Of a DNA stretch of 35,952 bases, positions 883-22,983 are shown piece by piece. Source of the DNA: Anaerolineae bacterium (lineage in GTDB: Bacteria > Chloroflexota > Anaerolineae > S140-20). Location of the stretch: the NCBI GenBank assembly GCA_027021705.1, contig JALUTT010000075.1, positions 1 to 35,952 of the forward strand. Direction: 5' to 3'. The notes beneath the pieces are model-generated. The model worked only from the letters and a program-made list of their open reading frames with translations, was not told where the DNA came from and searched no databases. Made by a program: the position numbers and the translations under genes. The stretch's first letter is position 1, and each line of letters begins with the position of its first letter.

Positions 883-1115
883 CTACGCCTTCCGCCCGTA
901 AGCCACAAAGATGCTGAGGGCCAGTGCTTTTCCATCGGGACCGGCTGTGCAGCAGTTCCCCTCGGCGCAATCCACGACCACATCGGTCAGGCCGGCGGCC
1001 AGGTACCAGGCCCGCACGTCGTCCCGCTCGAAGCCCAACCAGCGGTCGGCCATAGCCTCTCGCATCCATTCCTGGTCGTGGGCGTCCAGGTCGGTCAGCA
1101 CCAGCCGGCCGCCGG
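883..1115 (-). pseudogene. 3' fragment (~76 codons) of a class I SAM methyltransferase, copy of the end of 9989..10633
   Basis: 887-1115 aligns without gaps to 10005-10233 (about 11 mismatches in 229 nt by manual count). Homology stops abruptly at 1115; the N-terminal SAM-binding part is missing. Confidence 0.88.
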
Positions 1116-1125
1116 TGATCACCAG

Positions 1126-1153
1126 TTGACACCTTTGGATTGAAAGGTATAAT
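1126..1153 (+). promoter_or_regulatory. Consensus sigma70 promoter upstream of the tRNA-like gene
   Basis: TTGACA (1126-1131), 16 nt, TATAAT (1148-1153), 19 nt before the acceptor stem. Confidence 0.85.
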
Positions 1154-1172
1154 AGTAGTAACTTGGAAGTAT

Positions 1173-1293
1173 GCCCAGGTAGCTCAGCCAGGTAGAGCAC
1201 GCGGTTTGAAAGCCGCGGGGTATCCGGGGGAAGGTGAACCACCCCATATGGTACTCCCCTAGGAGGTCGGCGGTTCAAATCCGCCCCTGGGCA
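1173..1293 (+). tRNA. Atypical tRNA / tRNA-like RNA (Phe-like frame, 8-nt anticodon loop, 51-nt variable region, no encoded CCA)
   Basis: Acceptor GCCCAGG/CCTGGGC plus A discriminator; T8A9; D arm GCTC-AGCCAGGTA-GAGC; anticodon stem CGCGG/CCGCG around TTTGAAAG; T arm GGCGG-TTCAAAT-CCGCC. All four stems pair perfectly. Confidence 0.8.
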
Positions 1294-1298
1294 TTTGG

Positions 1299-4200
1299 TT
1301 ACAGTAGGCTGGCGATGAAGGCGCGTATCCGTCGCCAGCCATCACTTTCATCCTGTGACACAATACGGTTAACGTCTTCAAGCACCTCTTTGATCATCCC
1401 TCTAGCGCTGCATATCCGTGCAAACTGTTCAAAAGCTCTCAAGGCATCATCATATTGTTGCTGCCCAAGAAGCGCTAACCCCAGGTGGGCCCATGTATGG
1501 TATTGGCGAGATTCCAGGTGGATTTGTCTTCGACAGCGCAATTCCGCTATCTGAAAAGATTCAAGTGCCCCGTTTCTTTGCCCGGCGAGCAGGTAAGCAA
1601 TCCCCCGCCCGTTGTAGACCCAGAAAAAGGAAGCTCTCAGTGGAGTCCTACTCGTTCGCATCAATCGTAGGGCCTTCTCGAAAGCCTCGATAGCTTCCAA
1701 GGGCTCACCCAAGCGAATATGCACTTTTCCCAGTCCATTGTGGGGATTGATGTATTCGGGGGCCAGCTCGATGGCTTGTTGGTAGGTCTGGAGAGCCCGG
1801 TCAAATTGCTCCATTGCCAAATACAGTGCTCCATAAGCATCGTGAAGGATGGCTTGATGATGCCGCTCTGTTATTTCCGAGGTAGGGATTTCGTCCAGCA
1901 ATCTCTTGGCCGCTTCCAGATTGCCTATTTGTCTGAGCAAGTGAGCTAATTTAACACGTGCAGGGATATAAGAAGGATCCACCTCCGTCGCTCTCTTAAA
2001 TAGCTTCTCCGCTTCGCCGAACTCTCCCAGACTGCTCAGGGCGCTGGCCTCCGCAGCGAGTATACGCGCCTGCTTCCGCTTATTCACAAGTCCGGCTACC
2101 TCATAGCGCCTAATGCGTTCTAGGCCCTGGGCAACTGCTTGCAGCGGGTCAGGTGATAAGCTCTGAGCCCGCTCATATGCCAGTTTAGCCTCCTCTAGTC
2201 TGAGAAGATTCGTGAGCACCTTCCCTCGCTCGCTATGTATATGCGGGTTATCGGGAAGCCACTGCTGAGCCCGTTCCAGCATTTTCAGACTACGTTGCTG
2301 GATTTGTCGCCTCTTTGAAGATCGGGCCAGTTTTCGCCCTAACGAGAGATAAGCAAACGCAAGGTCTCTCTCGACTCCCGGGTCCCTCTCCCCTGATTTC
2401 CTGTAAACATCCTCCACTTCGCGAAGGAGACGCTCGGCTGCATCAAAATCTCCCTTAGCGACGAGCTTTTTGGCAGCAACAAATCGTTCAGCTTGCCGCT
2501 CTTTCTCTCCCAGCAGTTCCAACAATTCTTTCATTTCACTTTCTATCCTGGCCCACCCTAGCCCCTCTCCTAATTCCGCCAACTTCTGGACGAGCCCTCG
2601 GTGGTGCATCGGCAAACTGTTGTAGAGTAGTTCATCTCTCTCCACCAGATTCAAGAGTCTTTTATGGAATCCCTCACTCCTATATCGCATTGCCCATATG
2701 TAGTGCTTAGCGAGAAGCTCAATGACATCATCGTATTCCTGCAACCATAAAAGATGGTTGAGCAAGTCCAAAAGCCATTCCTGCCATTCTTGATCCCTGT
2801 ACTTCTTTCTGACGGCCTCCTCACCATACTCATCTTCGAGTTGCTTTTCCCGCTTCTTTAGCCGAATCTTGCACACAGATTTGGCTTCTTGATTGATAAG
2901 TATCAACCGTACATTTCCAATATCACCTGAATGCAAGGCCCTCCGCAAAAAGGAGCGAACTTTCGAGTGTATTCTGTAGCCGGGGAGGATGAAAGAATAC
3001 CGATGCTGCAGTTGTCGTATAATGTGATAGAACTCCTCCGTACTGTTGATCAGGCGGCATTTGAGCCAAGTATCCATCAGAAGCCTTTCCCGCTGCGCCA
3101 CTTTAGCAGTTTCCCCCTCGCGAATAACGGCGAGGGTACAAATGTAATCCAGTTCACGAATCTGCTCTTCCTCGGGGAGTCTCTCCAAATGTTTCAAAAG
3201 GCGTTGGGTAACTAAAGCTACGACTTTGTGCTCCCCTAAAGGTTCCGTGATGTCACCGAAAAGTTGTTCTATATCGCCGCCTCTCCTGATGATGGTTGCC
3301 ACCTCACTAACGGCCAGTGGAATTCCCATCGTTATCGTATGTATCCGGGATACTAAACTATCTGAAATCCGATGGTCAGGCAATTTATGCTCCAAGAAGT
3401 CACGGATGTCGTCCTCTGTAAAGCTATCGAGTGTCTTGTAGAAATAAGCAAGAGGATACGCATATCTGCGTACAGCATCCCGGTGCCGCGGTTCAACCTC
3501 TGGAGGTAGTCTACCGGCGATGGCAAAGAGGAACCTCTTTCCTACTTCTGACTCGGAAAGGCAATGGCGGTAAAGCCCTTCCCGTATCCACTGATCGGCG
3601 AAATGCCATATCACTTCATAGGTATCAAATAGCATCACAATCGGTCGTATATGAGCAATACAGACTAAATCGGTCACAAAGGCCTGGGAGAGACGGAGCT
3701 GATTTGGAGCGGTTCGCCCCGTCTGTTGTTGCTTCCATTCAGCATTAAATTCGGGGAAAGTCACCTCTTGATACTTGGATTGAAGGCGATCGCTGATACA
3801 TCGCATCATTGCTTTGGTGCCGCCCTGGGAGTCAACTCCGGCGAATTCCCAATCCACGTAAAGCCAGAATAGGTTATCTCCCCGCTCTTCGCACAGCCGC
3901 ACATACTCACCTAGCAATGTGCTCTTTCCCATTCCTCCCTCACCACAGACAAGAAACACCTGTGCCCAATCGGGTTCACTTACTGGGCTCGTGTGATTCA
4001 GTATGCTGCTTAATGAACGCTTAAATTCATTCTTCTCCCTTTCGCGTCCGATAAAGATATCCACTCTAGGGGGTGCGTCTTGGAGCGTCAATAGTTCCGA
4101 GCCTCCCAACCACCTATCAACGAACTCGGGGAAATGAGCAGCGATCTCTAAAATATCCTCCGGGGGCGAAGTGGGAATACGCGAATATTCCTCCAACCAC

Positions 4201-4346
4201 CCCTGAATGTTTTCCCATTGTCGTTCTATCTTCATCTGGGCGCTTATTTTCTGCTCGGGTTCCGCTGTTAGCTTGCTTTCCTCGTGGCTGCGGATGATTC
4301 CATAACTCTTTCTGATCAACTTTTCAAGGTCTTCCTTACGCCCCAT
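1299..4346 (-). CDS. STAND-type P-loop NTPase with C-terminal TPR array and small N-terminal helical domain (~1015 aa)
   Basis: FIGRERE, Walker A GEGGMGKS, Walker B IVMLFDTYE, GIPLAV (GxP) motif, and multiple TPRs (e.g. AYGALYLAMEQFDRALQTYQQAIELAP). Start moved from 4406 to ATG 4346, which has GGAGG 7 nt upstream. Confidence 0.88.
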   Translation of the reverse strand: MGRKEDLEKLIRKSYGIIRSHEESKLTAEPEQKISAQMKIERQWENIQGWLEEYSRIPTSPPEDILEIAAHFPEFVDRWLGGSELLTLQDAPPRVDIFIGREREKNEFKRSLSSILNHTSPVSEPDWAQVFLVCGEGGMGKSTLLGEYVRLCEERGDNLFWLYVDWEFAGVDSQGGTKAMMRCISDRLQSKYQEVTFPEFNAEWKQQQTGRTAPNQLRLSQAFVTDLVCIAHIRPIVMLFDTYEVIWHFADQWIREGLYRHCLSESEVGKRFLFAIAGRLPPEVEPRHRDAVRRYAYPLAYFYKTLDSFTEDDIRDFLEHKLPDHRISDSLVSRIHTITMGIPLAVSEVATIIRRGGDIEQLFGDITEPLGEHKVVALVTQRLLKHLERLPEEEQIRELDYICTLAVIREGETAKVAQRERLLMDTWLKCRLINSTEEFYHIIRQLQHRYSFILPGYRIHSKVRSFLRRALHSGDIGNVRLILINQEAKSVCKIRLKKREKQLEDEYGEEAVRKKYRDQEWQEWLLDLLNHLLWLQEYDDVIELLAKHYIWAMRYRSEGFHKRLLNLVERDELLYNSLPMHHRGLVQKLAELGEGLGWARIESEMKELLELLGEKERQAERFVAAKKLVAKGDFDAAERLLREVEDVYRKSGERDPGVERDLAFAYLSLGRKLARSSKRRQIQQRSLKMLERAQQWLPDNPHIHSERGKVLTNLLRLEEAKLAYERAQSLSPDPLQAVAQGLERIRRYEVAGLVNKRKQARILAAEASALSSLGEFGEAEKLFKRATEVDPSYIPARVKLAHLLRQIGNLEAAKRLLDEIPTSEITERHHQAILHDAYGALYLAMEQFDRALQTYQQAIELAPEYINPHNGLGKVHIRLGEPLEAIEAFEKALRLMRTSRTPLRASFFWVYNGRGIAYLLAGQRNGALESFQIAELRCRRQIHLESRQYHTWAHLGLALLGQQQYDDALRAFEQFARICSARGMIKEVLEDVNRIVSQDESDGWRRIRAFIASLL

Positions 4347-4523
4347 CCTTGTACCTCCCACACATATCCGTTGTCTCCGGGTACAATAGATTTGATCGGA
4401 AGCCATCCTCTCCCCGGCCCGAATTGCGGAATACGGGTTATGAGGAATTGCCGGACCTTTTTGTCACGGCTCGCCGCAGAGGACGGTCCAGGAGGGCTTT
4501 GTGGATGATCACCAAACTCGTTT

Positions 4524-4657
4524 GTGGTGATTCCCCTACAAGTGGGCGAGGGAATGAGCCATAGCGGGCTGTCCACAAATCTCCCACGAATGCACGAATA
4601 AGGTAGAGATTGAATCGTGTATTTATGCCCTATTCGTGGACGGCCATCTCTCCATAT
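4524..4657 (-). repeat. Dispersed ~130-bp palindromic element, homologous to 22770-22901
   Basis: Reverse complement reads GGAGAG..GCCGTCCACGAATAGGGCATAAATACACG...ATTCGTGCATTCGTGGGAGATTTGTGGACAGCC..CTCGCCCACTTGTAGGGGAATCACC, collinear with the 22.8-kb copy. Core hairpin 4568-4644. Confidence 0.85.
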
Positions 4658-4692
4658 ATTAACAAATATTAACAACGTCTACATATTCTGTA

Positions 4693-5016
4693 CTATTTGT
4701 AATCCTCCCTGATGGGATGCCAGGCATCCACAGCTTGAGTAGGATGGGAAAGGGCGCGTGCGCTATGGGGCACGTTTGGGGGAATGGTCACCCCTTCACC
4801 GACCCTGATGATCCGTGTCTCATCGCCCAGGGTGAACTCCAGCGCACCTTCCAGCACCAGCGTGATTTGTTCGTGGGGATGCTGGTGCTCCGGCACCACG
4901 GTCCCAGGTGCGAAGTCGAAGAAGGTCATCATCACGCCCTCCAGGTAGACGGCGCGTCGGCCGATCCCCGCGGCCATTTCCGTTCGAGGCAGTTCGCTCA
5001 CCCGAAAGAAAGCCAT
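4693..5016 (-). CDS. Cupin domain protein (copy 1)
   Basis: PEHQHPHEQ and IPPNVPHSA cupin motifs; GAGGAGG RBS before ATG 5016; 4 aa differences from 10630..10953. Confidence 0.9.
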   Translation of the reverse strand: MAFFRVSELPRTEMAAGIGRRAVYLEGVMMTFFDFAPGTVVPEHQHPHEQITLVLEGALEFTLGDETRIIRVGEGVTIPPNVPHSARALSHPTQAVDAWHPIREDYK

Positions 5017-5049
5017 TGTGTGCGCCTCCTCCCTCAAGAACCTCTTAGC

Positions 5050-8737: not shown

Positions 8738-9673
8738 CTACGACGCAGCGCCGGCCTTCCCGGCGGGCCGGGCGACCTTGGGGTCGGTCTCATCGTTGAG
8801 GATCATCTGCCCCAGCCGCTCGCCCAACCGGGTCAGCTCGGGCAGGGCGGCGGGATCATCCATCGGGATGCTGGTCTCCAGGTCTATCTGGAAACGGCGG
8901 AAGTCCAGCTCCGGGAAGAACTGCTGAACCAGACGCACCTGTTGGTCGCTGGCATCCCCGATGAAGGCATCGAGGATGGGCGCGATCCACTGCCAAGCGA
9001 AGAAGCGGCTGGCTTCCCCCGGCTTCAGGCCACCCGGTGCCCGTCCGGTTCCGATGCTGATGAGGGTCGTCTCCGCCGGGTCCCAGTCCAGGCAGAAGGC
9101 CGCTTCGTAGGCGGCGATGTAGCAGGGGTTGGCGTAGGAGCCCACGCCGCCGTCCACGTAACGACCGTCCACCACCGGGAAGTAGGTGGGCACCGAGGAG
9201 CTGGCCAGCACCGCCTTCCAGACGGGGAAGCGGGCGTACTCCTCTTTCCAGGGCTTGACGAAGCGGGTGCGGTTCTCCACCAGGTCGTGCATCGTGATCA
9301 CCACGTCCATCGGCGGATCGGCCTTCCAGAACTCCCCCATCGTCCGGTCGCCCAGATAGGTGCGCAGCGCCTCGATGAAGGGCCGGTTGGAATAGCGGTA
9401 GCGGGTGAGCGGCCAGAGCCAGCTCCGCCAGGTCTTGCGGAAGATCACGCCTCCCAGTTGCACGTAGAGCTCGTGGACTTGAGCGGCCGGCATCTGAACG
9501 GCGATGGCAGCGGCGATGATGCTCCCCGTCGAGGTCCCCGCCGTCAGGCGGCAGACCTGTCCCAAGGGCTCTCCTAGGGCCTCTTCGACGACGGCGAGGG
9601 CCTTGGCGACCATCGCGCCTCGGATCCCTCCGCCGTCAATGGCGATGGCACAGTGCTTACGAAATGGTTTCAT
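8738..9673 (-). CDS. Patatin-like phospholipase
   Basis: DGGGIRG, GTSTG nucleophile, ASSSVPTYF and YVDGGV. ATG 9673 follows a G-rich RBS (ORF extends to 9691). Confidence 0.93.
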   Translation of the reverse strand: MKPFRKHCAIAIDGGGIRGAMVAKALAVVEEALGEPLGQVCRLTAGTSTGSIIAAAIAVQMPAAQVHELYVQLGGVIFRKTWRSWLWPLTRYRYSNRPFIEALRTYLGDRTMGEFWKADPPMDVVITMHDLVENRTRFVKPWKEEYARFPVWKAVLASSSVPTYFPVVDGRYVDGGVGSYANPCYIAAYEAAFCLDWDPAETTLISIGTGRAPGGLKPGEASRFFAWQWIAPILDAFIGDASDQQVRLVQQFFPELDFRRFQIDLETSIPMDDPAALPELTRLGERLGQMILNDETDPKVARPAGKAGAAS

Positions 9674-9988: not shown

Positions 9989-10633
9989 TCAAGGGTGCCT
10001 CCAAGCCTTCCGCCCGTAAGCTACAAAGATGCTGAGGGCCAACGCTTCTCCATCGGGACCGGTCGTGCAGCAGTTCCCCTCGGCGCAATCCACGACCACA
10101 TCGGTCAGGCCGGCGGCCAGGTACCAGGCCCGCACGTCGTCCCGCTCGAAGCCCAACCAGCGGTCGGCCATAGCCTCTCGCATCCACGCCTGGTTGTGGG
10201 CATCCAGGTCGGTCAGTACCAGCCGGCCGCCGGGACGCAGCACGCGGGTGATCTCGGCGATGGCGGCGGCCGGGTCCGGCGTGTGGTGCAGGTACATGTT
10301 GCCGAAGACGGCATCGAGGGAACCATCGGGCAGCGGCAGCGCATCGCCTCGCGCTCCCAGCAACTCTACGTTGTCGAAGACGGCCAGGTTGCGCCGGGCC
10401 ACGGCCAGCATCTCCGGCGACTCGTCGAGACCGTAAACCCAGGCCACGTGAGGAGCCAGCCCCTGAATCACAAAGCCGGTGCCGGTGCCCAGATCGGCCA
10501 CGACCGCATCGGGGGTGAGGCGAGCGCGGGCGATGGCCGCATCGCGCATCGCCTCGGTGAAATAGCCGGCGCGGATCTCATCCCACTCTTCGGCTACATC
10601 CGCAAAGTACTCCCTCGACTCCTTCACCTTCAC
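9989..10633 (-). CDS. Class I SAM-dependent methyltransferase
   Basis: VADLGTGTG motif I, LPLPDGSLDAVF, RVLRPGGRL and C-terminal CAEGNCC. The GTG start overlaps the cupin stop (GTGA). Confidence 0.92.
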   Translation of the reverse strand: MKVKESREYFADVAEEWDEIRAGYFTEAMRDAAIARARLTPDAVVADLGTGTGFVIQGLAPHVAWVYGLDESPEMLAVARRNLAVFDNVELLGARGDALPLPDGSLDAVFGNMYLHHTPDPAAAIAEITRVLRPGGRLVLTDLDAHNQAWMREAMADRWLGFERDDVRAWYLAAGLTDVVVDCAEGNCCTTGPDGEALALSIFVAYGRKAWRHP

Positions 10634-10953
10634 TTGTAGTCCTCCCTGATGGGATGCCAGGCATCCACAGCTTGAGTAGGATGGGAAAGGGCGCGTGCGC
10701 TATGGGGCACGTTTGGGGGAATGGTCACCCCTTCACCGGCCCTGATGATCCGTGTCTCATCGCCCAGGGTGAACTCCAGCGCACCTTCCAGCACCAGCGT
10801 GATCTGTTCGTGGGGGTGCCGGTGCTCCGGCACCACGGCTCCGGGTGCGAAGTCGAAGAAGGTCATCATCACGCCCTCCAGATAGACGGCGCGCCGGCCG
10901 ATCCCCTCGGCCATTTCCGTCCGAGGTAGTTCGCTCACCCGAAAGAAAGCCAT
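10630..10953 (-). CDS. Cupin domain protein (copy 2)
   Basis: PEHRHPHEQ and IPPNVPHSA motifs; GAGGAGG RBS. Confidence 0.9.
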   Translation of the reverse strand: MAFFRVSELPRTEMAEGIGRRAVYLEGVMMTFFDFAPGAVVPEHRHPHEQITLVLEGALEFTLGDETRIIRAGEGVTIPPNVPHSARALSHPTQAVDAWHPIREDYK

Positions 10954-11021
10954 CGTGTGTGCCTCCTCTTGCGTGTCCGTTCGTGTATCTACGTGGAAGA
11001 AGGTGGGCCGGGAGCCACCCC

Positions 11022-11050
11022 ATTATCCCCCGAGTTTCCCCGGATGTCAA
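11022..11050 (-). promoter_or_regulatory. sigma70 promoter for the cupin-methyltransferase pair
   Basis: Minus strand TTGACA, 17 nt, GATAAT, about 70 nt upstream of ATG 10953. Confidence 0.7.
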
Positions 11051-11109
11051 GCTCTTCGGCGCGGACCGTCTCGCAGCCCCCGGTGTAGGGGGCGGGAGAG
11101 GGGCGTCTC

Positions 11110-12159
11110 CTACTCCAGCGGCGGGACGGCGATGCGCCATAGGCTGGAAGGCGTGTCTTCGTCCTCGCCCGGATGGGACTCAAAGACGATGAAACGACCG
11201 TCCGGCGACCAGGAGGGCGCGCCATCCTCGTGGGTGCCGTTGAAGGTGACCCGGATGGGCGTGCCCCCTTCCGCCGGGATGACGAAGATGTTGGGCGTGG
11301 GCAGGTCGCCGTAGTCGGAGGAGTAGACGATGTAGCGGCCATCGGGCGACCAACTGGCGTCCGTATCGCTGGACGCTTGGTCGGTGACCAGGCGGAGGTC
11401 CGAACCATCGGGGGCTATCGTGTAGATGTCCCAATCATCGCTGCCGGGGTCGCGCCGCTGAAACAGAATCCGCTCCCCCGTGGGAGACCAGTTCGGCTGG
11501 CGGTCGTCCACCCCTTCGGCCGGGCCATCGGTGAGGATGGTCAGCCCGGTTCCGTCGGCCCGCACCTTCCAGATGCTCCCCTGTTGCCGGTCGTCGGGCC
11601 GTGCAGCATCCGCCTCAAACACGATCCACGCGCCGTCCGGCGACCAACTGGGCTCGATGTACCAGGGTGGGCCGTGGTGGGTTGTGATGCGGGTGAAGCC
11701 CGTGCCGTCGGGCGCGATCTGCCACAGGTCGTCGCTTTCGGCCCGGTCGGAGGCGAAGACGATCCGGTCGTGGACCGCGCTCCAGGCGGAGCCGGGCAGA
11801 TTGACGTTGTCCTGATCCTCCTCCGGCGTCAGACGGACGATCTCGCCGCCGGAGAGGTCCAGCCGGAAGATGCCGGCCGGCCCGATGTTGTAGCCGTTCT
11901 CAAAGCGGGTGAAGGCGAGAAAACGACCGTCCGGCGAGAAGGCGGGGTTCTGATCGCTGGCCCCCGACGGCGGGGTGGTGAGGCGCTGGGCGCCATCGGA
12001 TCGGGTGGCCTGTTCGGACATGACGGTCGGCAGGAAGACGTGGGAGGGGGTCGCGGTGGCGCTCTCCGTCGGGAGGGCCTCCGCCGGTTCCTGGGCGGAG
12101 GACCGGCAGGCCCCCATCAGCGAGGCGATGACCAGCACAATTCCCACGATTCGTCGCAT
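11110..12159 (-). CDS. TolB-like/PD40 beta-propeller lipoprotein (349 aa)
   Basis: AAGGAG RBS before ATG 12159, signal peptide ending in lipobox LMGAC, and repeated P(S/A/N)(W/F)SPDG motifs. The ORF extension to 13377 overlaps the kelch gene and is not credible. Confidence 0.88.
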   Translation of the reverse strand: MRRIVGIVLVIASLMGACRSSAQEPAEALPTESATATPSHVFLPTVMSEQATRSDGAQRLTTPPSGASDQNPAFSPDGRFLAFTRFENGYNIGPAGIFRLDLSGGEIVRLTPEEDQDNVNLPGSAWSAVHDRIVFASDRAESDDLWQIAPDGTGFTRITTHHGPPWYIEPSWSPDGAWIVFEADAARPDDRQQGSIWKVRADGTGLTILTDGPAEGVDDRQPNWSPTGERILFQRRDPGSDDWDIYTIAPDGSDLRLVTDQASSDTDASWSPDGRYIVYSSDYGDLPTPNIFVIPAEGGTPIRVTFNGTHEDGAPSWSPDGRFIVFESHPGEDEDTPSSLWRIAVPPLE

Positions 12160-22735: not shown

Positions 22736-22983
22736 AATCACGCACCGGTGATTACCCTTATCTTTGGAGATAGGGAGAGTAGCCGTCCACGAATGGGGCA
22801 CGAATACACGAATTAAGGACCGCCTCATTCGTGCATTTGTGAGAAATTCGTGGACGGCCGGCTACGGACCCCTCTCTCGCTCACTTGTGGGTAATCACCG
22901 CAATCACGCACGCACTGGGGATGACCCATATCTGGGGGGTGGGGAGAGTAGCCGTCCACGACTGGGGCATGAATACGCGAATA
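22736..22983 (+). repeat. Palindromic element, one full and one partial tandem copy, between divergent promoters
   Basis: AATCACGCAC...GGGAGAGTAGCCGTCCACGA.TGGGGCA.GAATAC.CGAAT occurs at 22736 and 22902. Inner hairpin GCCGTCCACGAAT/ATTCGTGGACGGC; outer perfect 12-bp IR CGGTGATTACCC (22746-22757)/GGGTAATCACCG (22889-22900). Confidence 0.85.

Follow-up and report, generated by a model that had tools for sequence, protein, structure and literature searches.

What is a tRNA-shaped RNA with an outsized variable region, set tail to tail with the gene of a large STAND-type NTPase, and does it decode? The RNA gene was first noticed in a 35,952-nucleotide contig of an Anaerolineae bacterium (hereafter the window; coordinates in table 1), where an initial annotation, made from the DNA letters alone, proposed that it may use a tRNA scaffold to display a cargo domain or, alternatively, may act as a decoy for anticodon nucleases, an antitoxin or a ligand, or read a UGAA quadruplet. 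Infernal/Rfam aligns the gene over the entire tRNA model (RF00005, positions 1-71 of 71; 47.9 bits, E 2e-7, gathering score 29), the sole full-length tRNA match in the window. ARAGORN called no tRNA there, and at E<=1 Rfam returned only tRNA between positions 1100 and 4720. Direct parsing confirms that the canonical stems pair without a mismatch: the acceptor stem has 7 bp, the D stem 4, the anticodon stem 5 (CGCGG/CCGCG) and the T stem 5, and all pairs are standard. U8, the D-loop GG (G18G19), a T-loop UUCAAAU and discriminator A are likewise intact, in keeping with the 7/4/5/5-bp cloverleaf, U8, G18G19, UUCRANY T-loop and discriminator that define a tRNA; no CCA is encoded at the end. The window RNA departs from the usual 7-nt anticodon loop with U33, as had been annotated, in having the 8-nt loop UUUGAAAG, and the loops of its five relatives have 7 nt. 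The whole RNA folds with a minimum free energy of -56.9 kcal/mol (z -2.9), equalled by 2 of 200 shuffles. Its body keeps all features for tRNA-like folding and probably those for tRNA-like processing.

Upstream, the annotated TTGACA-N16-TATAAT promoter is indeed a perfect one. Between 900 and 5100 there are five promoter-like sites, against 2.8 +/- 1.5 in shuffled sequence, and this is the only perfect site. The promoters of the relatives' RNA genes match the consensus at 11-12 of 12 positions and occupy the same place. Scanning the whole host genome (G000) with RF00005 gave 50 tRNA matches, and a Roseiflexus metagenome-assembled genome (MAG) gave 47; in each, a single match exceeds 90 nt, the window RNA and the STAND-linked RNA, respectively. 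A recent copy of a host tRNA is ruled out, the core sharing only 73% identity (55/75) with its closest counterparts among the tRNAs of the host (Phe and Thr).

The feature that sets this RNA apart is its variable region, 51 nt (1218-1268) in the window and 45-46 nt in the relatives, with two helices. The minimum free energy fold reproduces the structure annotated earlier, a GGGUAUC/GGUACUC stem around a GGGG/CCCC helix. Across loci the extra arm measures 34-39 nt, with a stem of 7 bp, a further helix of G:C pairs and an AUAU that stays unpaired; its stem begins at the first base past the anticodon stem, and AGGUC follows the arm. Once positions 1218-1263 are removed, a class-I tRNA layout remains. 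The region is thus neither that of class I (4-5 nt) nor that of class II (one hairpin arm, at least 10 nt long), and the class II signature of a Leu, Ser, Tyr or Sec anticodon and an arm after positions 44-45 is also absent, the anticodons of these RNAs being GAA or GAU. A second small hairpin might form in the linker (CUCC/GGAG in the window, UCUC/GAGG in the relatives), in registers that differ by one base.

Table 1. Coordinates of the RNA gene, its neighbour and the surrounding cassette in the window.
Feature	Position	Strand	Basis or remark
3' remnant of a methyltransferase-like gene, left cassette flank	887..1115	-	Open frame; 94% protein and 95% DNA identity to paralogue
Two-gene cassette, low GC (about 50%) in a 64-71% GC background	1116..4696		GC profile; flank comparison
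Sigma-70 promoter TTGACA-16-TATAAT of the tRNA-like gene	1126..1153	+	12/12 consensus match
tRNA-like RNA gene, 121 nt	1173..1293	+	RF00005 full-length match; stems standard, co-varying with relatives
Anticodon loop UUUGAAAG, 8 nt	1205..1212	+	Direct read and parsing; 7 nt in every relative
Extra arm V1: 7-bp stem directly after the anticodon stem, around a second helix and unpaired AUAU	1218..1256	+	Folds; pair conservation
Linker CCCUAGG and AGGUC	1257..1268	+	AGGUC corresponds to an ordinary 5-nt variable loop
STAND-type P-loop NTPase, TPR array at the C-terminus; 1015 aa when counted from the second ATG	1299..4346	-	ORF open to 4406; Pfam, model
Structured repeat copy, about 130 nt, upstream of the STAND gene	4521..4657		blastn; fold z -3.1

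The convergent STAND-NTPase/TPR gene and the cassette structure did not figure in the initial annotation. In the window, the RNA gene ends 5 nt from the STAND stop codon. The protein has the layout that defines the class, a P-loop NOD module followed by a repeat sensor: Pfam detects AAA_16/NPHP3_N and many TPR families, the AF2 model consists of a P-loop core and a TPR superhelix, and a Foldseek search places 6mfv, a solved STAND-TPR protein, at rank 10. GEGGMGKST and FDTYE, corresponding to Walker A (GxxGxGKS/T) and Walker B (hhhhD), are invariant in nine of nine family members, and nSTAND_NTPase5 is matched in four of the nine. NCBIfam and PDB sequence searches with the protein returned TPR hits only, and PADLOC reported 0 families, with no model matching it. 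Residues 20-100 form a helical domain in the AF2 model and have no Pfam match at E<=1. Elsewhere in the family the N-terminus is an EAD7 domain (L028, 86.8 bits) or Trypsin_2 (P0011 and P0012); L025 has a caspase-EAD7 gene beside the RNA, and CHAT and MoxR-VWA genes lie in the neighbourhood of L031. Such domain kinship, together with the neighbouring genes, hints at a possible role in defense.

A convergent tRNA-like gene lies 3-8 nt past the STAND stop codon in all six loci that have a close homologue (47-100% identity) and the STAND 3' end in view (the window, L025, L026, L027, L028 and L031), a count that leaves out the loci of family members P0005, P0007 and P0009-P0012. One Roseiflexus MAG and four metagenome contigs from hot springs make up the six together with the window. 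In every one, a near-consensus promoter belongs to the RNA gene itself, and the variable region spans 45-51 nt. The identity matrix reduces them to about four lineages, three of them Roseiflexus-like, and the linkage could therefore partly reflect shared descent. Four more distant STAND homologues with the 3' end in view are without the RNA; the STAND protein is thus not dependent on it in general, and the strict linkage is a property of one subfamily. Near one distant homologue (L051) a tRNA-Sec is found 133 nt from the gene's end, behind two co-oriented ORFs, which we take as coincidence.

Comparison of the six RNAs shows which parts are constrained. All 21 cloverleaf pairs and all seven V1 pairs are standard in every sequence, and the compensatory changes that the initial annotation proposed to look for are present in both the cloverleaf and V1: in the acceptor stem, pairs 2, 4 and 5 show double changes, as do pairs 2-5 of the anticodon stem, 1-3 of the T stem and 1 and 4 of V1, the V1 stem showing two double and three single-sided changes in total. 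RNAalifold independently recovered the cloverleaf and the long arm. The RNA is 94-96.5% identical, against 78-91% for the adjacent CDS and 54-61% for the upstream 80 nt, and V1 is identical across the three Roseiflexus-type lineages. Homologues that carry a conserved insert at the same site, with co-varying stems, argue against both random decay and a one-off scar. Of all elements, the anticodon loop is under the weakest constraint, and the arm is constrained as strongly as the tRNA core. The anticodon varies freely: GAU in L025, L026, L028 and L031, GAA in L027, and an 8-nt loop in the window. L026 and L027 encode 100% identical proteins, yet their RNAs differ in anticodon (GAU vs GAA). Because the anticodon is least conserved and the arm most, the annotated idea of a tRNA scaffold with a cargo arm fits the data. 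The part of that interpretation built on UGAA does not survive: the two UGAA loops and the 8-nt loop belong to the window copy alone, the relatives having 7-nt CUGAUAA or CUGAAAA anticodon loops and an AUAU(G) apical loop, and neither quadruplet reading nor UGAA display can thus be the function of the family.

The same comparison bears on whether these are working Ile-GAU or Phe-GAA decoder tRNAs that tolerate an outsized arm and travel as cassette cargo, for instance to help the low-GC STAND gene be translated. Their core is canonical throughout, and the Roseiflexus-type copies have an ordinary 7-nt loop with U33 and a purine, A37, at position 37, so charging and decoding are possible for them. 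IleRS and PheRS both read the anticodon, and a change from GAU to GAA would therefore alter the codon and the amino-acid identity at once. Translational activity persists in engineered tRNAs whose long variable arm carries hairpin aptamers, as described in the available text of PMC7590224. Nevertheless, a decoder would not be expected to conserve its anticodon loop least and its arm as strongly as its core, nor to start that arm directly after position 43, unlike class II tRNAs. The hosts already carry these anticodons, on two tRNA-Phe(GAA) and a tRNA-Ile(GAU). The window copy has an 8-nt loop, which would make it a poor or +1-frameshifting decoder, despite intact stems and an intact partner gene, and the strict 3-8-nt placement beside one particular gene is left unexplained. 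We consider decoding an unlikely account of this RNA.

The genomic setting provides clues on how the pair has spread. The sequences that border the 3.6-kb cassette, 887-1115 and 4697-5031, recur at 10005-10233 (95% identity) and 10634-10968 (95.5%), and the intact methyltransferase-like paralogue of the left-flank remnant is at 10004-10234; about 400 bp of a duplicated methyltransferase-cupin locus have thus given way to the cassette. In blastn, the structured repeat upstream of the STAND gene gave more than 100 hits (72-83% identity) scattered over numerous contigs of the host genome. Searches of about 590 further Chloroflexota genomes (sets of 400, 40 and 150) did not find the RNA. RNA-pattern hits in three other genomes of the phylum were dismissed as chance, three one-mismatch hits standing against three control hits, and no tRNA was present at the two with T-arm-like context. 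A phage or plasmid origin was rejected, as there was no pattern or protein hit in viral contigs and none in plasmids. The RNA and STAND genes form a small mobile cassette and have been jointly transferred horizontally.

With the tRNA-like gene at the cassette edge and the island on its 3' side, the arrangement resembles classic tRNA-linked islands, and transposase remnants flank the pair in L031. The RNA might in that case be a relic of a tRNA gene that had served for integration or had been interrupted by a small hairpin element, now hitch-hiking without function. However, we found neither an integrase nor a tRNA 3'-end repeat at the far border, and the insert is not repeated elsewhere in the host genome at E<=1e-5. 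A relic would also hardly keep near-consensus promoters in all loci, intact and compensated stems and a sequence more conserved than the neighboring CDS. We regard this scenario as very unlikely.

Metatranscriptome assemblies offer a view of the locus at the RNA level. Contigs from four of four runs bridge the insert unspliced, with 0 differences and no joint, and contigs run from inside the STAND gene over the whole RNA gene; these contigs are unstranded, could hold DNA and can miss small or rare species, and no mature 112-121-nt species is among them. In three of the four runs contigs end at L031 8998/8999, 10 nt short of the RNA 5' end. An ordinary tRNA-Ile(GAU) accounts for the high-depth contigs at L031 8895-8927, and neither these nor the depth differences and uncovered stretches in the RNA runs were counted as evidence. 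Were the insert a small bacterial intron of a new kind, its excision would leave a perfect 75-76-nt class I tRNA with a clean AGGUC loop. The unspliced contigs speak against it, weakly since they can miss small or minor species; moreover, the window copy would keep its 8-nt loop after excision, and we know of no bacterial machinery for such an intron. An intron is the least credible reading, and we give it very little weight.

Given the convergent, abutting layout, the STAND mRNA must cross the RNA gene. The RNA could accordingly act in cis only, its promoter firing into the STAND 3' end and its overlap with the 3' UTR leading to interference or duplex decay, while the tRNA shape would confer stability and processing and the arm would have no ligand. 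The 3-8-nt gap favors this scenario, as does the lack of any conserved terminator between the two genes on either strand (a hairpin at 1313-1346 in the window, examined as a terminator 3' of the RNA, is not kept in the relatives); the contigs that cross both genes, and their stops at L031 8998/8999 in three of four runs, give a weak hint in the same direction. Yet any stable RNA would do, and an arm of 34-39 nt with a shared CCCCAUAUGG core, compensated across proteins of 47% identity, would be without explanation. An effect in cis alone therefore appears improbable. Trans-pairing of the RNA with the 5' region of the STAND mRNA was rejected, since whole-length duplexfold, a crude test, gave duplex energies like those of shuffles (z -0.15, -1.0 and +0.06).

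In this context, we tentatively put forward, at slightly less than an even chance, that the RNA is a tRNA-scaffolded non-coding partner of the NLR-like STAND protein rather than a decoder chosen for its anticodon. The strong promoter would yield an abundant, stable, tRNA-shaped RNA, which the STAND protein may read via the extra arm or which may pair with the 3' end of the STAND mRNA; by either route the system would be held silent by the RNA. If, during infection, the RNA were lost, cleaved or sequestered, or transcription shut off, the NTPase would be freed and could oligomerize, whereupon the N-terminal adaptor or effector would fire, the firing part being EAD7 beside a caspase-EAD7 gene in some relatives and a trypsin-like domain in others. 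We infer that binding of the protein to the RNA, and control in this direction, would underlie the association. A more specific version, in which a STAND sensor has a dedicated tRNA-shaped guard, bait or co-sensor RNA, read through its arm, so that attack on tRNA or transcription shut-off trips an apoptosis-like protease pathway, is possible though somewhat doubtful. The silencing mechanism as a whole, with its release on infection, is if anything a shade more doubtful.

If the guard, bait or co-sensor version is correct, it would make the STAND protein the first prokaryotic NLR with an RNA partner, and the tRNA body a natural display scaffold. Through an RNA gene that is strictly linked and transferred jointly, the class of STAND/NLR-like sensors would gain an RNA component, and the pair makes a simple two-gene cassette for testing. 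Natural tRNAs are thought to hold the variable region within narrow limits, which gives interest to a conserved, co-varying two-helix arm of 45-51 nt on an otherwise class-I tRNA body; it would also be a natural precedent for the tRNA-scaffold designs of synthetic biology. Our literature search found no paper describing a tRNA-like RNA linked to a STAND gene.

How does the pair compare with known systems? Convergent type I toxin-antitoxin pairs (Bacillus subtilis txpA/RatA type), in which an RNA antitoxin overlaps the 3' end of the toxin mRNA, share with it a strongly transcribed small RNA tail to tail with the gene of a potentially harmful protein and a 3'-UTR overlap. The likeness lies in the convergent, abutting gene layout alone: here a STAND NTPase of 1015 aa takes the place of the small membrane peptide, and the RNA has a complete tRNA fold with an added arm. 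Bacterial Y RNAs of the YrlA type, which possess a tRNA-like module and are encoded beside rsr (Ro60), the gene of their binding protein, are similarly tRNA-like non-coding RNAs beside a protein gene. In contrast, the window RNA has a whole cloverleaf, including the anticodon arm, its neighbor is a STAND NTPase, not Ro60, and Rfam recognizes it as tRNA only (E<=1).

Class II tRNAs (Leu, Ser, bacterial Tyr and Sec) and allo-tRNAs likewise combine an L-shaped core with a helical arm in the variable region, 10 or more nt long in class II according to the available passages of a review (PMC7609411). The arm described here differs in its 45-51 nt, in having two helices with an internal loop and in starting right after the anticodon stem; a complete class-I AGGUC loop follows it, and the anticodons are of Ile or Phe type. 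The passages on long-arm tRNAs in that review (PMC7609411) describe no tRNA of this kind. In engineered tRNA scaffolds, too, a tRNA body expresses and stabilizes an added hairpin, and allo-tRNA designs place an aptamer in the variable arm, as given in the accessible part of PMC7590224; the window-type RNA, however, is natural, conserved and linked to one protein family. Finally, antiviral STAND/NLR-like systems with EADs (Avs, bNACHT and the EAD-coupled systems of Kaur et al. 2020/2021) have the same layout of variable N-terminus, P-loop NOD and TPR sensor. In the portions available of the papers searched, such sensors are protein-only machines (PMC13581612, PMC7159879, PMC8195603), the term tRNA occurring only in the reference lists of the first two and nowhere in the third. 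In contrast to these described systems, the window cassette includes an RNA gene, and its protein fits no PADLOC model.

The tRNA-like gene at 1173-1293 (+) of the window is matched end to end by the Rfam general tRNA model (47.9 bits, gathering score 29), and its minimum-energy fold (-56.9 kcal/mol, z -2.9) recovers both the cloverleaf and an extra arm (table). The initial annotation, which described intact stems, an 8-nt anticodon loop and a long structured variable region behind a consensus promoter, is thus correct in every detail by Rfam match, parse, fold and promoter; 19 nt separate the end of the promoter from the first base of the RNA. The tRNA gene callers that it also proposed were divided: Infernal with Rfam returned the full-length match, whereas ARAGORN made no tRNA call in the window. 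The window copy passes the general tRNA model, yet fails on the 7-nt anticodon loop and on variable-region size. The class II tRNA definition is failed too, anticodon and arm position both being off.

Features of the window RNA gene, the adjacent STAND-type gene and the repeat copy beside them
Feature	Position	Strand	Description	Basis
Promoter	1126-1153	+	TTGACA-16-TATAAT	12/12 consensus match
Acceptor stem, window RNA			7 bp, then U8-A9	sequence reading and parse
D stem, window RNA			4 bp; 9-nt loop containing GG	sequence reading and parse
Anticodon stem	1205-1212 (loop)	+	CGCGG/CCGCG closing 8-nt loop UUUGAAAG	sequence reading and parse
Variable region	1218-1268	+	51 nt	sequence reading and parse
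T stem, window RNA			5 bp, loop UUCAAAU	sequence reading and parse
3' end of window RNA			discriminator A; CCA not encoded	sequence reading and parse
STAND-type ORF	1299-4346/4406	-	1015-1035 aa; stop codon 5 nt from the RNA's 3' end	
Structured repeat copy	4521-4657		between STAND gene start and right cassette border	blastn and fold

The low-GC stretch holds two genes only, the RNA gene and the opposite-strand STAND-type ORF. The full-length relatives of the STAND protein in a 5.8-billion-protein collection number eight (37-60% identity), every one metagenomic, and their alignment was used for profile scans. Besides the window's own contig, the metagenome scan yielded four hot-spring contigs with close relatives (L025-L028); a one-genome-per-species collection yielded one close locus, in a Roseiflexus sp. 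MAG (L031), and 11 others that are weak, partial matches. At all five close loci Rfam gives a full-length tRNA match (112-115 nt, 61.9-64.3 bits) on the opposite strand, starting 3-8 nt past the end of the protein match, with a promoter (TTGACA/TTGGCA-17-TATAAT/TACAAT) 6-12 nt upstream. Including the window, the RNA is present in six of the six close-homologue loci with the 3' end of the STAND gene in view. By protein identity these represent about four lineages: the window protein is 47-49% identical to the other five, L025 and L028 share 86%, and the L026/L027/L031 group is 99-100% identical within and 68-69% identical to L025 and L028. A sample of 400 phylum genomes yielded five more distant STAND homologues (E 1e-20 to 5e-78); no such RNA lies beside the four with the 3' end in view, and the fifth contig stops before the gene end. 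Convergent with one of the distant homologues (L051), and 133 nt past its end, is an ordinary tRNA-Sec (2765-2857, +), which follows two co-oriented ORFs and which we take as a coincidence.

Among 50 tRNA matches in the host genome and 47 in the Roseiflexus MAG, this RNA alone exceeds 90 nt. It was not found in 60 relatives of the host (blastn), 400 phylum genomes (motif pattern, with three one-mismatch hits, the control rate), 40 additional genomes from the family of the MAG (blastn), 150 additional genomes from its class (covariance model built here), or the viral contigs and plasmids searched; as these are samples, the result means not found in those searched rather than absent. Two of the three motif hits resemble a T-arm context and are not tRNAs. 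In the class scan, which includes four genomes flagged unpublished (G623, G504, G528 and G590), the best other match is an ordinary 73-74-nt tRNA at 65.6 bits, versus 137.4 bits for the true hit.

The Roseiflexus-type RNAs of the five relative loci have a 7-nt anticodon loop and a variable region of 45-46 nt. The loop reads CUGAUAA (GAU) in L025, L026, L028 and L031 and CUGAAAA (GAA) in L027, although the STAND protein of the latter is 100% identical to that of L026; these two differ by a single base at tRNA-like position 36, a population-level anticodon polymorphism. In the structural alignment, every one of the 21 cloverleaf pairs is standard across all six sequences, with both-sided changes in pairs 2, 4 and 5 of the acceptor stem, 2-5 of the anticodon stem and 1-3 of the T stem. 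The extra arm is bounded by a 7-bp stem (V1), which begins immediately 3' of the anticodon stem and is likewise standard in six of six, with both-sided changes at two pairs (A-U to G-C, C-G to U-A) and single-sided changes at three (G-C/G-U or U-A/U-G). The initial annotation had suggested looking for homologues and compensatory change; among these six sequences the homologues keep the insert and the stems do show such changes. Inside V1 the window and the Roseiflexus type differ in length and register, and both contain the string CCCCAUAUGG, with CCCC and GG paired and AUAU unpaired, in an apical loop in the relatives and an internal loop in the window. A 6-7-nt linker and AGGUC follow V1, and what remains once V1 and the linker are taken out is a flawless class-I tRNA layout. 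Run on the MAFFT alignment without editing, RNAalifold gives the same cloverleaf and long arm, the cells scored as broken for the window arising from its misaligned 8-nt loop and longer arm. Between lineages, identity is 94-96.5% in the RNA, 78-91% in the last 600 nt of the coding sequence and 54-61% in the upstream 80 nt, and V1 is unchanged across all three lineages of the Roseiflexus type. Constraint is as strong on the added arm as on the tRNA core, and the anticodon loop is the sole freely varying part, with three states over some four lineages.

This pattern bears on whether the gene encodes a real but odd decoder tRNA. The match to the general tRNA model notwithstanding, such a role seems unlikely, given a freely varying anticodon loop and an arm as constrained as the core. 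Moreover, the hosts already possess the RNA's anticodons (in the genome of the window, two ordinary tRNA-Phe(GAA) genes and a single tRNA-Ile(GAU)), and the gene is found only beside one protein subfamily. Because these four facts (loop, arm, host anticodons, and linkage with joint transfer) point away from a decoder, we tentatively read the RNA as a tRNA-scaffolded partner of the STAND gene. The two host tRNA-Phe(GAA) genes differ (C71:4369-4443 and C170:62207-62280, one with an encoded CC), and one may stem from another organism, the estimated contamination being 4.5%. ARAGORN also made three false tRNA calls inside GC-rich coding DNA of this genome (contigs C92, C99 and C132).

The region L031:8300-9500 is represented in 24 metatranscriptome runs from 21 studies, and contigs were examined for four runs from four studies; these contigs carry neither strand nor abundance, and DNA is possibly included. 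In four of four, one contig spans the RNA gene's entire insert without difference, gap or joint. We conclude from this that RNA libraries contain the unspliced form, with the proviso that contigs may include DNA; that the insert represents a new kind of intron is very improbable. In three runs the contig ends at 8998/8999, 10 nt inside the RNA's 5' end (once with Illumina adapter as a loose end), which hints weakly at a defined RNA end nearby; in the fourth it continues to 9529. The very deep contigs at 8895-8927 are ordinary tRNA-Ile(GAU), indicating that the 3' part of the Roseiflexus-type RNA resembles that tRNA.

GC content is 50-54% over 1001-5000 of the window, against 64% in the first kilobase and 65-71% between 5 and 22 kb. 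The left flank (887-1115), the 3' end of a methyltransferase-like gene with an intact paralogue at about 10 kb, is 95% identical to 10005-10233, and the right flank (4697-5031), a cupin gene, is 95.5% identical to 10634-10968. Since both flanks match a second copy, 1116-4696 replaces some 400 bp of a diverged duplicate methyltransferase-cupin locus; the two copies are 9 kb apart at 95% identity, with aconitase and PIG-L genes between. The left border lies 10 nt upstream of the -35 box. RNA and STAND gene entered a foreign genome together, as a 3.6-kb unit with its edge just outside the RNA's promoter. No integrase, direct repeat of the tRNA 3' end or terminal inverted repeats were seen around the cassette. 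The ~130-nt repeat inside it folds strongly (z -3.1) and recurs over 100 times in the host genome, at 72-83% identity and spread across many contigs, which suggests that the cassette has been in this host for some time; a second window copy lies at 22770-22903. The window RNA core is 73% identical to the nearest host tRNAs and 66% to the Roseiflexus-type core, and so derives neither from a recent duplication in the host nor from a recent transfer out of Roseiflexus. The contig opens (1-350) with a 171-nt tandem duplication (97.8% identity) inside an open frame rich in Pro, Arg and Thr that weakly matches a collagen repeat.

We tentatively put forward, at somewhat short of even probability, a tRNA-scaffolded non-coding RNA that is functionally part of the STAND gene unit. 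In the favoured model, possible but rather unlikely as it stands, it would be a guard or antitoxin-like RNA whose arm is read by the TPR region. The main alternative is a purely cis-antisense role, with which the 3-8-nt gap between the genes and the lack of a conserved terminator there agree; it appears distinctly unlikely. That the RNA is a hitch-hiking relic is highly unlikely.

The STAND protein has Walker A (GEGGMGKST) and Walker B-like (FDTYE) motifs unchanged in nine of nine relatives, a large TPR array and weak AAA_16 and NPHP3_N matches; among relatives, AAA_16 occurs in seven of nine, nSTAND_NTPase5 in four and an N-terminal Trypsin_2 in two. Its AlphaFold model (mean pLDDT 76.6) comprises, from the N-terminus on, a helical domain, a P-loop core of five strands, a further helical region and a TPR superhelix. 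Foldseek ranks the solved STAND-TPR protein 6mfv tenth, the other hits being purely TPR, and PADLOC has no model matching the protein. The N-terminal module differs across the family, being the helical domain (window), EAD7 (L028; 86.8 bits, cut-off 32), a ~230-aa helical domain or a trypsin-like domain. L025 has, across the RNA from the STAND gene, a gene (3580-4929, +) for a caspase (Peptidase_C14) that carries EAD7 at its C-terminus; this gene starts 80 nt past the tRNA-like gene's 5' end and is directed away; L025's own STAND protein has no EAD7 match, unlike that of L028. In L031 the surrounding genes include those for a CHAT protease and a MoxR-VWA pair, and transposase remnants are present as well. 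L031 also has, some 2 kb away from the RNA gene, a 117-nt tandem repeat (10946-11163) adjoining DDE-transposase remnants, and a single match to the CRISPR repeat family DR28 lies at a similar distance in L031 (11331-11354) and L026 (8963-8986).

A review of non-canonical natural tRNAs (PMC7609411) describes nothing like this RNA in the passages concerned. In the STAND papers PMC13581612 and PMC7159879 the word tRNA occurs only in the reference list, and in PMC8195603 not at all; full-text searches of main texts likewise turned up no publication that connects a tRNA-like RNA with STAND or NLR-like systems. By class, it is a tRNA-derived RNA, and the new part is its proposed partnership with a STAND gene. 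The domains of the family and its neighbours are those typical of NLR-like antiviral STAND proteins and of the NTP-dependent conflict systems that multicellular bacteria have, sensors in which a variable N-terminal module is usual, as here; should the RNA prove a working part of such a sensor, it would be new in kind.
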